Origin: Octopus vulgaris
Taxonomy: Eukaryota
DNA length: 64,000 nucleotides
NCBI GenBank assembly: GCA_951406725.2
Contig: OX597822.1
Span: forward strand, 5,766,001-5,830,000
Reading direction: 5' to 3'
Under the pieces are notes generated by a model. It was not told where the DNA came from, did no database searches, and worked only from the letters and a program-made list of their open reading frames with translations. Positions 3,540 through 12,771 of this stretch are shown here, piece by piece (position 1 is the stretch's first letter; each line of letters begins with the position of its first letter). The position numbers and the translations under genes were made by a program.

Positions 3540-4180
3540 TATGATGGAATGAACAAAACAATAGAAAGTATTGAACAGACATTGATGAATTACAAAAAGC
3601 CAAAAACAGTTCAGATGCACCAAAAAACTCTATCTTTAATAACCAAACACAGCCCAAGAAACATGGAAATATTCAGCATTATCCATCAGAGCCAAGACTC
3701 AAGAATGAAAAAGTTGCTTGAATCAAAAAAAATATTAAATGTGAAAGACATTCAAAAGCCAAAAAGACCTACTTAGCAATGTGATACTACCTACAATGGA
3801 CTCAAATCCAGCAGTTAAAATGTGTGGCTGATCTAATTGAGGAACAACCTTATTGAGAACATAGCTTATACATTTAAATCGAGACAAGTTTTTACTGTAG
3901 AAAACCATTTTACTTCTTCAAAAATTTTATATGGGGAAGATTATATAGGACAAACTAAACTCACTTTAAGAATGAGGCTAACAATTCATTGTCAACAGAT
4001 ATGAAATATTAGGTCTAGACAAGTTCCACTAAGTGAACATCTGGATGCATGCAATGAAACTAGATCTCATAAATTTCTTGTCTTCTCATCTTATCAACAT
4101 GCAGACAGTACCATAGATCAAACAAGAATAAATAAGGAAAATTAGTTTGTTAGAAAATGCAAGCCATGACTGAATAGGTT
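3540..4180 (+). mobile_element. Decayed Penelope-like retroelement (post-RT linker and GIY-YIG endonuclease)
   Basis: From 3933: GEDYIGQTKLTLRMRLTIHCQQI*NIRSRQVPLSEHLDAC...TRINKEN*FVRKCKP*LN, the YIG-T / R-H / E / LN pattern of the PLE GIY-YIG domain. The upstream ORF 3549-3776 has LSLITKHSPRN, like the PLE linker. Contains in-frame stops. Confidence 0.75.
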
Positions 4181-5165
4181 ATACAAAACATCAGTAATAC
4201 ATGATTCACCTTTTCTTATGAATTAATTATTGTAGAAATATATGTATGTTTATTTGCACTTGTTCTTAAGAAAAACAAAATTCATGTAGCAGCTATCATC
4301 TACTTTATTTCTTCCACACCTCATTATCTTGCCCCACACCTTGTTAACAAAGAAGAGACATATTTTAATGAGAGTGAACTAGCACTAATTGATAACCTTA
4401 TTCTTTGACAAAATAATGAACAATAACTATCTGTAACACTTTTATCTCAACAATGATTATATTTTTAAAAATTTAAGTTTCAGACTTTATTACTTTTGAC
4501 ATAAAACGATAGAGAAAACACAGTAAATTAGACATCACTTATTCATATCTCTCTTTTCTAGCTCTCATATGACATATTCAAAGGGAAAAAAAACCAACTT
4601 TTATGTGATCTTCGTGTGTGATTGTCACATAAGCTTAATACGTAAATGTTGACCTGTCAATTTATGTGTCAATGGCCAACAGAGTGAGCCACAGTCTTTC
4701 TTTAGAAACAAACAGTTTTTATAACACCTGCCAGATAAATTCTTCACTCCTTAAGCTGATGTTTGTGATAATTGACTATAAAATTGTAAATATTGTCCCT
4801 CATCCTACTGGCAATGCTTTACCAATCCTTACACAATTGTCAACATCTTTTGTGGTAAGAATGTACCCTTCCGATTCTTATTAACCCCCAACTTATTCCT
4901 CTTGAAACGTTTTTGTGTTGCTATGTATCTATATTGTACCATGTATGTTTAGAAATATTTATTTTCATGTACAATGGTGATCATGTTGCTTGCTCTCCGA
5001 TGTTTTCTTGTATCCTATTTTTCAGAAAAAGCCCATAGGAACACAGTGTGACTTGATAATATGAAAAATCAATTGGAAAATTAATTTTGCATTACAGAAT
5101 TTTATGTTACAGCCAGAATACCAGAATATCAAGAATACATTGCTTCTCTAAATGAAGGATTTCTA

Positions 5166-10203: not shown

Positions 10204-10236
<33 letters not shown>

Positions 10237-10249
10237 CATATATATGTAT

Positions 10250-10820
10250 CATTAATTAAAATCTTAGGGTAGCAAGAATATTTATTGAAAAATTCTTAGT
10301 TACCAGTGGTCTGGCAAGAAAGGAAAAATTAGTCAATAGACTATATATTATTCAGAGAATAATACAGTGTACATTCAAACACAAAAGAGATACCCGACGA
10401 ATAGGATATCTGACTCACTAGAAAGAGCAGTTAAAACTCAAAGCCACAAATTGTTGTAATCCCGAAAGTGATTGAAAAATAAAAAAACTTTTACCTTAAT
10501 CCTAGACCCTGCAAGGTTTCTGCAGACTTAAATACAGATTGAAATAAAATAATCTCAGTCTTGCTCATTTATAGCTCCATGTCTATGCGTTCAGTCTTGG
10601 CAATCTACTGAGGACGCAGCGCCAGATATAGGCCGAAGTTATTTTATTTCAATCTGTATTTAAGTCTGCAGAAACCTTGCAGGGTCTAGGATAAGGGTAA
10701 AAGTTTTTTTTACTTTTCAATCACTTTCGGAATTACAACAATTGGTAGCTTGGAGTTTTAACTGCTCTTTCTAGCGAGTCAGATATCCTACTCTTCGGGT
10801 ATCTCTTTTATGTTTGAATT
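10250..10820. mobile_element. Non-coding Penelope-pLTR/retrozyme-like element with ~180-bp inverted arms
   Basis: Arms 10373-10552 and 10639-10819 are inverted complements. The left part is homologous to 11985-12230. TA-rich runs on both sides. Contains a hammerhead. Confidence 0.7.
10604..10690 (+). ncRNA. Type I hammerhead ribozyme (extended stem II)
   Basis: TCTA-CTGAGGA(10608-10614)-cGCAG...CTGCa-GAAA(10671)-CCTTGCAGG-GTC|TAGG. Stem III ACCTTGCAGGGT is near-palindromic. Predicted cleavage after C10686. Stem I is short (4 bp) and the stem II closing pair is a C-A mismatch. Confidence 0.65.
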
Positions 10821-10840
10821 TTTTATATATATATATATAT

Positions 10841-10995
10841 ATATTAGAGGGAAAAGGACAACAAAAACCAAGGCAGGACAGGTGTCTCAAGTCATTTAAA
10901 ATATCTAATTGCCTTTTAAATATTCTAATTAATTATTCTAATTTACTTGAGTTGCCTGTCCTGCCTTGGTTTCTGTTGTCCTTTTCTCCTAATAT
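10841..10995. repeat. ~50-bp-arm hairpin next to (TA)n
   Basis: GAAAAGGACAACAAAAACCAAGGCAGGACAGG...CTCAAGT pairs with ACTTGAG...CCTGTCCTGCCTTGGTTTCTGTTGTCCTTTTC. Confidence 0.85.
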
Positions 10996-11950: not shown

Positions 11951-11976
<26 letters not shown>

Positions 11977-11981
<5 letters not shown>

Positions 11982-12731
11982 CAATATAGGGTAGCAAAAA
12001 AATTCAAGAAAAATTTTCTGCAACCAGCGGCCAAGTGAGAAAATAGAAATAGTCACAGACTATATAATATATTCAAACAAAAGTATTAAGGAAAGACCCT
12101 TACAGGTCGTTCAACTCACTTGAAAAGAGCAGCCAAACTCAAAACCGCAAAAATAGTAGTAATTCTGAAAGCTAAAGGAGAAATAAAAACATTTATTCCT
12201 TTCAACTTTGTACCCTGCAAGGTTTCAACAATTTTTACGCAATCGAACTTAATTAAATTAAATTAAATCCGTTTACGATTGGGTTGTTTCATCAGCAAAG
12301 TCTCCAAAAGAAAAGGCGGACATATACACACGAGGCGACACCACTGAAGCCCCGAGTATATATATCCTAATTTTTCGAAATCCAACGTAACCGCGCCAAC
12401 TACTCAGCAGCAAATATAAACTGCTGATAGAATTTCAGAATTAGTCAAAAATTATTAATTTATCAATATAGGGTAGCAAAAAAATTCAAGAAAAATTTTC
12501 TGCAACCAGCGGCCAAGTGAGAAAATAGAAATAGTCACAGACTATATAATATATTCAAACAAAAGTATTAAGGAAAGACCCTTACAGGTCGTTCAACTCA
12601 CTTGAAAAGAGCAGCCAAACTCAAAACCGCAAAAATAGTAGTAATTCTGAAAGCTAAAGGAGAGGTTTTGAGTTTGGCTGCTCTTTTCAAGTGAGTTGAA
12701 TGACCTGTAAGGGTCTTTCCTTAATACTTTT

Positions 12732-12735
<4 letters not shown>
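11977..12735 (-). mobile_element. Tandem 482-bp non-coding retroelement (retrozyme/Penelope-pLTR-like) with an inverted terminal piece
   Basis: 11977-12181 recurs apparently identically at 12459-12663 (period 482). 12664-12735 is an inverted copy of ~12557-12629. (TA)n on both sides. No ORF in the supplied track. Carries a hammerhead. Confidence 0.8.
12205..12301 (-). ncRNA. Type I hammerhead ribozyme (extended stem II)
   Basis: Minus strand: ACTTTG-CTGATGA-AACAA...TTGTT-GAAA-CCTTGCAGG-GTA|CAAAGT. Perfect 6-bp stem I, perfect 5-bp stem II (plus an inner CAATCG/CGATTG helix), canonical core, GUA triplet. Cleavage between 12211 and 12210. Confidence 0.88.

Positions 12736-12771
<36 letters not shown>

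Follow-up and report, generated by a model that had tools for sequence, protein, structure and literature searches.

The DNA analyzed here (the window, 64,000 nt of an Octopus vulgaris contig) carries at positions 10247 to 10818 two copies of a 493-bp non-coding unit (family A), both truncated at the 5' end and arranged head-to-head, between TA-rich flanks (Table 1). No frame of 80 aa or more was found at this element, and a coding frame for reverse transcriptase (RT) and GIY-YIG endonuclease is absent both from it and from its unit. All of the features named in an earlier, sequence-only reading are present in the window where it placed them. The inverted arms of ~180 bp that it described correspond to the overlap of the two arms (187 aligned nt with 14 differences); the true arms are longer and are separated by a short linker. 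Their divergence of 7.5% is the same as that between random copies. With a single complete hammerhead and not even one whole unit in contiguous form, the element would not be able to spread further; it is a broken copy and, as an individual insertion, ordinary.

Table 1. Features of the inverted family-A element and its surroundings (window positions)
Feature	Position	Strand	Remarks
Left target flank	10204-10246		TA microsatellite
Left arm	10247-10561	minus	family A, unit positions 22-334 counted from C3 of the core; outward end at the far 3' site; hammerhead 3' half only
Linker	10562-10566		5 nt joining the two 5' ends; matches neither arm
Right arm	10567-10818	plus	family A, unit 452 to 208 across the unit junction; outward end at the near 3' site
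Tentative loop 1-loop 2 pseudoknot	10597-10625	plus	TTGGC 10597-10601 with GCCAG 10621-10625
Type I hammerhead motif	10604-10690	plus	sole complete hammerhead of the element; TCTA 10604-10607, CTGAGGA 10608-10614, C10615, GCAG 10616-10619, CTGC 10666-10669, A10670, GAAACCTTGCAGGGTC 10671-10686, TAGG 10687-10690; C·A mismatch 10615/10670; palindromic helix III 10674-10685; predicted cut after C10686
Long hairpin prolonging stem II	10624-10661	plus	pairing kept, sequence different in families A-D; 15 pairs in RNAalifold
GT..AG segment	10695-10770		~75 nt, just 3' of the hammerhead
Right target flank	10820-10845		T run and TA microsatellite
Separate palindrome	10841-10995		155 bp, directly past the right TA run
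Family-B insertion, independent	11971-12750		minus arm of 693 nt (1.4 units) head-to-head with plus arm of 87 nt (12664-12750)
Family-B hammerhead, one full	~12205-12301	minus	stems ACTTTG/CAAAGT and AACAA/TTGTT
Penelope-like remnant	3561-4181		decayed RT/endonuclease

Two neighboring features deserve separate mention. The 155-bp palindrome beyond the right TA run is 80% self-complementary and shows no homology to families A to D; we take it to resemble a MITE. The GT..AG segment behind the hammerhead is short-intron-like, and a motif similar to its own, TTAAG/GTAAAA, is found in the pLTR of a Penelope-like family with a 781-aa protein (see below). As a 75-nt intron this segment was rejected: the donor is lost in family B, and the spliced joint is absent from contigs of eight runs.

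The family-A unit belongs to a group of related, dispersed repeats in the 2.8-Gb assembly (227 contigs, rich in TA microsatellites). First-look DNA searches gave 948 candidates for family A and 1464 for B, with 40 scored each time, and 1775 for C and 1442 for D, families C and D having been reached via fragments beside two loci. The head-to-tail units measure 493 (A, as read from copies exceeding one unit), 482 (B), 472 (C), and 478 bp (D) and are 58 to 77% identical in pairs. The proposed homology between the window element and the 482-bp family held up, with 75% identity over 114 nt (10413-10520 versus 12114-12226; E 6e-11) and 64% over the whole unit (score 308, versus 75 +/- 15 in 200 shuffles). 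Genome-wide there are 219 exact matches to the 16-nt helix III motif GAAACCTTGCAGGGTH, compared with 3 to its reversed control. Removal of duplicates with identical sequence, of elements running off a locus edge, and of anything shorter than 80 nt left 179 distinct elements from 200 loci. Since the loci were chosen as best or exact-motif matches, they are biased to intact copies and the conservation of the GAAAC...GGT block is inflated. More than one unit is present in 70 of 290 segments, the longest being 1583 nt; tandem full hammerheads occur in B, C, and D loci (e.g., L033, L206, and L227), and no A locus with two was confirmed among the loci examined.

Further hammerhead-bearing repeats came to light alongside these four. 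A search with a short-stem hammerhead pattern yielded a fifth sister family (L270, L271, L278, L293, and L298) that is 64 to 85% identical to units A to D in local pieces, with stem I YCTG/CAGR and stem II GGCA/TGCC. Another hammerhead-like family (L269, L272-L277, L279-L282, and others) has a short stem II and helix III CACTGCAGTG, clusters near the start of contig C3, and has no homology to units A to D. A different retrozyme-like hammerhead is present in loci L158 and L172; its stem II hairpin is long, and its helix III is built on ACATGT.

The hammerhead of the window element combines the core segments CTGAGGA and GAAA. The type I core (CUGANGA, GAAA, A15.1-U16.1, and a UH cut site) is intact in this copy and in 52 of 62 family-A copies. 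Rfam at the gathering threshold gave no match in the window, and the hammerhead alone folds no better than shuffled sequence (z 0.09, versus -2.9 for that at 12205), so the case for it rests on comparison. This comparison bears out the claim that stems I and II differ from those of the 12205 ribozyme and yet pair: between A and B, both sides have changed with pairing kept at I.1, I.3, I.4, and II.2, and, in 42 of 85 B copies, at II.5. Further pairs changed on both sides appear in stems I and III once families C and D are included. Helix III is the same in A and B and variable in C, D, and 11 of 85 B copies, its flanks covarying round an invariant TGCA. All versions of it are self-complementary, and cofolding predicts a 12-bp dimer for each, at -15 to -19 kcal/mol.

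A formal pair count covered 34 hammerheads, i.e., the window copy and 33 of 39 drawn randomly from 149, the other six having been left out for indels or broken flanks. Paired cells amounted to 87.3%, versus 68.7% in shuffles, and the covariation score was 0.494, versus 0.212 in shuffles (0 of 500) and at most 0.171 in slid controls. The count covers only four lineages, and two of its five measures did not exceed the shuffles (double-change pairs, 10 versus 9.5; further pair types, 19 versus 21.3). RNAalifold predicted helix III, the long hairpin of helix II, and helix II itself in part, but no stem I. With these limits, the double-sided changes across families A to D support the proposed selection on the hammerhead fold. 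Six positions of the core are fixed without polymorphism, while the free position 7 varies (A 41 and G 19 in family A; T 59 and C 26 in B). Within family A, polymorphism touches none of 35 core and stem positions, versus 48 of 458 elsewhere (p 0.024). The same test was not significant in family B (p 0.28), where the three stem polymorphisms keep pairing.

A contact between loops 1 and 2 may add to this fold. A YUGG(C)/(G)CCAR complement exists in A, B, and C, with 3 bp in D, and only one outer pair of it covaries. As the chance of a 4-bp complement between these loops is ~0.26, the pseudoknot is tentative.

The base of stem II is where family A stands apart. The sequence-only reading had raised the possibility that the family consensus restores the closing pair, by T at 10615 or G at 10670. 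This is not the case: of 62 complete hammerheads, 38 have A·A at this pair, 21 have C·A, and only 3 have T-A, and position 10670 is A in all 62 and G in none. The usual paired 10.1-11.1 (mostly G-C) is thus missing from family A and present in its sisters, being A-U or G·U in 82 of 85 copies of B, G-C in 22 of 23 of C, and A-U in 9 of 10 of D. Since 59 of 62 copies carry A·A or C·A, the mismatch is family-wide; judged from these alignments, it is a family-A trait and not decay. A further mismatch, A·A at I.5, occurs in 62 of 62 family-A copies where the other families have C-G. In contrast, the T at 10604 is nearly private to the window copy (C-G in 58 and T-G in 2 of 62), the family stem being CCTA/TAGG. 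The loss of stem I or stem II pairing that would have spoken against the sequence-only reading did not occur: the next four stem II pairs and the first four stem I pairs hold in 60 to 61 of 62 copies. Contigs of uncertain RNA origin carry the family sequence with A at 10615; they give no information on strand, ends, or level.

Possibly, the family-A hammerhead is a decayed relic whose founder lost both the 10.1-11.1 pair and cleavage and which spread nonetheless, given that copying of the Penelope type needs no cleavage. The mismatches at 10.1-11.1 and I.5 would fit such a history, as would the predicted fold, which is the poorest of the four families: in monomers the hammerhead lies a median of 7.4 kcal/mol above the minimum in A, compared with 3.7 in B, 2.1 in C, and 2.5 in D, and only 2 of 57 family-A monomers have it within 2 kcal of the minimum. 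Moreover, in the parts of the published work available to us, cleavage by the hammerhead of an anole element is dispensable for insertion in vitro (PMC11167929), U-U is described as the best tolerated mismatch at 10.1-11.1 (PMC3088659), and eight of nine Xenopus retrozyme dimers did not cleave (bioRxiv 2026.07.22.740005). However, the variants that separate subfamilies within A fall on the free core position 7 and the already mismatched 10.1 base. Because family-A variants avoid the 35 core and stem positions, selection would have acted after the mismatch, which suggests that constraint on this hammerhead continued once the mismatch had arisen. Hammerhead-like motifs of autonomous elements in the same genome also begin stem II mismatched (L188 and L154 with U·U; a relative, L178, with C·A), and an axolotl retrozyme with U·U at 10.1-11.1 does cleave according to the accessible portion of PMC7229834. 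We therefore regard the relic explanation as unlikely, though it keeps a real share of the probability.

How the element came by its mirror shape can be read from the insertions as a group. Of the 179 distinct elements, 102 are head-to-head (5'-to-5'), 77 have a single orientation, and none is tail-to-tail. The 3' ends fall at two sites in each family (234/324 in B, 228/315 in C, 229/320 in D, and ~200-245/320-340 in A). Among the 79 inversions with both ends at a site (23 more were unclassed), 74 have one near and one far end, one per arm, where half would be expected (p 4e-17). This rule is obeyed by the window element and by the family-B element at 11971-12750. TA runs lie beside 239 of 281 3' ends and 40 of 77 free 5' ends. 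The 5' breakpoints are scattered over the whole unit and are not enriched at the predicted cut site (5 of 290 within 3 nt, ~4 expected). The traits of Penelope-type products are thus present, namely, 5' truncation, head-to-head inversion, a tail on one end, and an AT-rich target.

This scatter bears on the idea, put forward in the sequence-only reading, that the inverted arms sequester the 3' half of the ribozyme in dsRNA. Taken further, the palindrome would be a selected switch that hides this half so as to control cleavage or to feed small-RNA silencing. The pairing itself is predicted: transcribed end to end from the plus strand, the element has a folding energy of -303 kcal/mol, with 10633-10817 paired to the left arm at a mean of 92% and stems I to III at zero probability. 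Of the 86 inverted elements that include a full hammerhead, 23 have its 3' half covered by the opposite arm. What does not stand is the design. The remaining 63 of the 86 are not covered, 17 of the 23 covered elements have a full hammerhead in both arms, stem I is improbable even without the left arm (0.00 to 0.01), and the arm divergence equals that of random copies. Contigs of eight runs, none of which extends across the locus, weigh neither for nor against the idea. With breakpoints scattered and only 6 of 86 elements laid out like that in the window, a dsRNA switch is not supported, and we consider it extremely improbable. Random truncation gives the window layout as one result among others, and the mirror shape is likely a side effect of how the copy was inserted, not a switch.

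Inversion could also arise on a single template, by self-priming or fold-back, instead of from two primed cDNAs; in the portion of PMC3846280 available, self-priming on an antisense template is the model favored for inversion. Consistent with one template, opposite arms differ in only 135 of 1326 polymorphic-site comparisons (10%), close to tandem units (7%) and far from random pairs (41%). Self-priming cannot, however, yield arms of mixed families, such as the A-C and B-Penelope junctions considered below, and it leaves the combination of near and far ends in 74 of 79 inversions unexplained. Nor can it yield the window copy, the arms of which differ at 5 of 13 polymorphic sites, each time to a known alternative allele (p 7e-4; 4e-3 without a CpG site). 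Because of these five differences to known alleles, the two arms of the window element likely came from two different RNAs. Self-priming as the source of these inversions is quite improbable in our estimation.

The mixed junctions lead to the likely partner of these repeats. In L050/L191 (L049 contains the same junction), a family-B arm that stops at the near site adjoins a 5'-truncated autonomous Penelope-like element, with 3 nt of microhomology and no TA run between them; the Penelope side is 98% identical to L188 and runs to its tailed end. In L064 a family-A arm (far site) is joined to a family-C arm (near site), as read by eye and outside the 79 classed inversions. The junctions lie near position 22939290 of G000:C13 and position 92223200 of G000:C1. 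The link between retrozyme and autonomous element thus consists of one junction, sampled twice, and concerns family B, not A. The L188-type family combines RT and GIY-YIG (RVT_1 at 27.8 bits, just under the cut-off) in a 775-aa frame behind a 454-aa frame. All 40 of its scored matches are 100% identical, and its inverted copies pair a short end with a tailed end in five of five with both ends seen. Several other candidates for such joint insertions were rejected: L073, read as a B-C palindrome, has two family-B arms (it stays among the 74 as a near/far pair); the Penelope pieces in L034 and L033/L056 adjoin retrozymes with TA runs intervening; and in L072 family B sits inside an old coding frame.

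Some observations on the Penelope-like elements stand on their own. The very young two-frame family of L299 (G000:C1:80210500-80220400), L188, and L244-L268 has a 4271-bp tandem period and a hammerhead-like motif with CCGAAGA in place of the needed CUGANGA; its older relative L154 has CTGAAGA. A second young family (L182, G000:C16:20834500-20842000; L190, C17:42761500-42769000) has a 781-aa RT and GIY-YIG frame, an upstream frame, a 456-bp pLTR, and a U3-A8 hammerhead variant, with one truncated copy (L181) just upstream of the window. The decayed remnant inside the window is 31% identical to this 781-aa protein (E 6e-15).

One might ask whether the unit is itself the terminal repeat (pLTR) of an undiscovered autonomous Penelope-like element, the copies being its truncated ends. 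The insertion anatomy is the same as that of the autonomous elements, and in the parts of the sources consulted, truncated elements with opposite-strand hammerheads 100 to 700 bp apart are known (PMC4209133) and Xenopus retrozymes are related to pLTRs (bioRxiv 2026.07.22.740005). Against this, over-length copies continue head-to-tail into their own unit and never into a coding frame: by tblastn of 150 A and B loci, no unit runs 5'-to-3' into one, the matches in five loci being the head-to-head junction (sampled twice), an adjacent insertion, a target, and a weak match. Neither the GIY-YIG loci nor the short-stem hammerhead pattern led to an autonomous element with a homologous pLTR, and the units show no DNA homology to autonomous elements in 40 GIY-YIG loci (best E 0.08), the GIY-YIG search having scored the best 150 of 6136 candidates. 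A terminal-repeat origin is, on this evidence, very unlikely.

Among known systems, the units fit metazoan non-LTR retrozymes. Going by the portions of PMC7229834 and bioRxiv 10.64898/2026.07.22.740005 available, metazoan non-LTR retrozymes resemble the units in being non-coding, of low GC content, and arranged head-to-tail with one type I hammerhead each, in their size of a few hundred bases, in occurring as many dispersed monomers and short tandems, and in co-occurring with Penelope-like elements. The unit of ~490 bp compares with 150 to 450 bp in the former source and 51 to 972 bp in the latter. Among mussel and axolotl retrozymes are examples that miss the canonical loop contacts or carry a mismatch where helix II begins. 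In contrast to these retrozymes, stem II is prolonged here by a 16-bp hairpin, family A has A·A or C·A at 10.1-11.1, and most insertions are head-to-head with two fixed 3' ends, a feature not described for retrozymes in those portions of the two sources. The assignment here is made from DNA, with self-cleavage and RNA circles being predictions.

Endonuclease-positive Penelope-like elements, as far as described in the sections consulted of PMC8557442, PMC3846280, and PMC11167929, share with our insertions 5' truncation, partial tandems, an inverted 5'-truncated copy at the 5' end, one-ended extension, (TA)n targets, and two internal start sites. Inverted 5'-truncated copies with a one-ended tail are reported in PMC8557442 and PMC3846280, and two internal RT start sites, with both strands cut and extended by a predicted dimer, in PMC11167929. 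The two end sites are ~90 nt apart in B, C, and D and ~90 to 125 nt in A, compared with 30 to 40 nt in Penelope-like elements; unlike these elements, the units lack a coding frame and homology to the autonomous elements examined. The minimal hammerheads of the Penelope type (PMC4209133, seen in part) are likewise of type I, with 4 to 5 bp in helix I, a helix III whose palindrome lends itself to dimers, and one additional base between A9 and a G-C pair. In family A, helix III measures 4 bp and that G-C pair has an additional base on either side (a 1x1 mismatch). PMC4209133 already records hammerheads on opposite strands, the palindromic helix III, and the additional base behind A9; U·U at 10.1-11.1 and loop pseudoknots are on record in the part of PMC3088659 consulted. 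In the literature covered, which was partial and without supplements, we found no hammerhead with an A·A closing pair (A10.1/A11.1) and nothing on Penelope twin priming or mixed-arm insertions; with Repbase and Dfam likewise aside, we found no account of cephalopod retrozymes.

In conclusion, we consider it very probable that the insertion is a 493-bp non-coding repeat with a hammerhead motif, likely a non-LTR retrozyme, that was likely copied into TA by two-ended Penelope-like priming. In such a scheme, a read-through RNA with at least two units would cleave itself, likely as a dimer through the palindromic helix III, and would yield a monomer or circle. A Penelope-like protein with RT and GIY-YIG would then cut both strands of (TA)n, with priming in two AU-rich patches, the near site for one end and the far site for the other. 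That both strands would be cut, with one priming site per end, is proposed because of the end rule together with the available part of PMC11167929. The two unfinished cDNAs would be joined at their 5' ends, the junctions being what we see. Usually both arms would come from one type of template, while the window copy likely drew on two different RNAs. The B-Penelope and A-C junctions point to such two-ended priming by a Penelope-like enzyme.

A bolder extension is conceivable, although we hold it to be somewhat doubtful: each mixed palindrome would record one event, a Penelope-like dimer having copied two different RNAs at the two sides of a break, invariably one RNA from the near and one from the far start site; the B-Penelope junction would reveal the mobilizer of the retrozymes; and the family-A hammerhead would work with its purine mismatch at 10.1-11.1, held by its pseudoknot.

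In summary, the window element fits the known metazoan non-LTR retrozymes and has a Penelope-like insertion anatomy. Family A is a naturally occurring hammerhead variant in which A·A or C·A takes the place of the G-C found in most hammerheads, and constraint on it apparently continues. The partner of retrozymes had previously been inferred from co-occurrence and pLTR similarity, going by the accessible part of bioRxiv 2026.07.22.740005. Here, retrozyme and young autonomous Penelope-like arms lie in one insertion and follow the same near/far rule, which names a candidate enzyme-substrate pair. The mixed-arm junctions, which also bear on how Penelope inversions form, are the part most worth following; if our reading is true, the B-Penelope junction would be direct physical evidence for the mobilizer of animal retrozymes.
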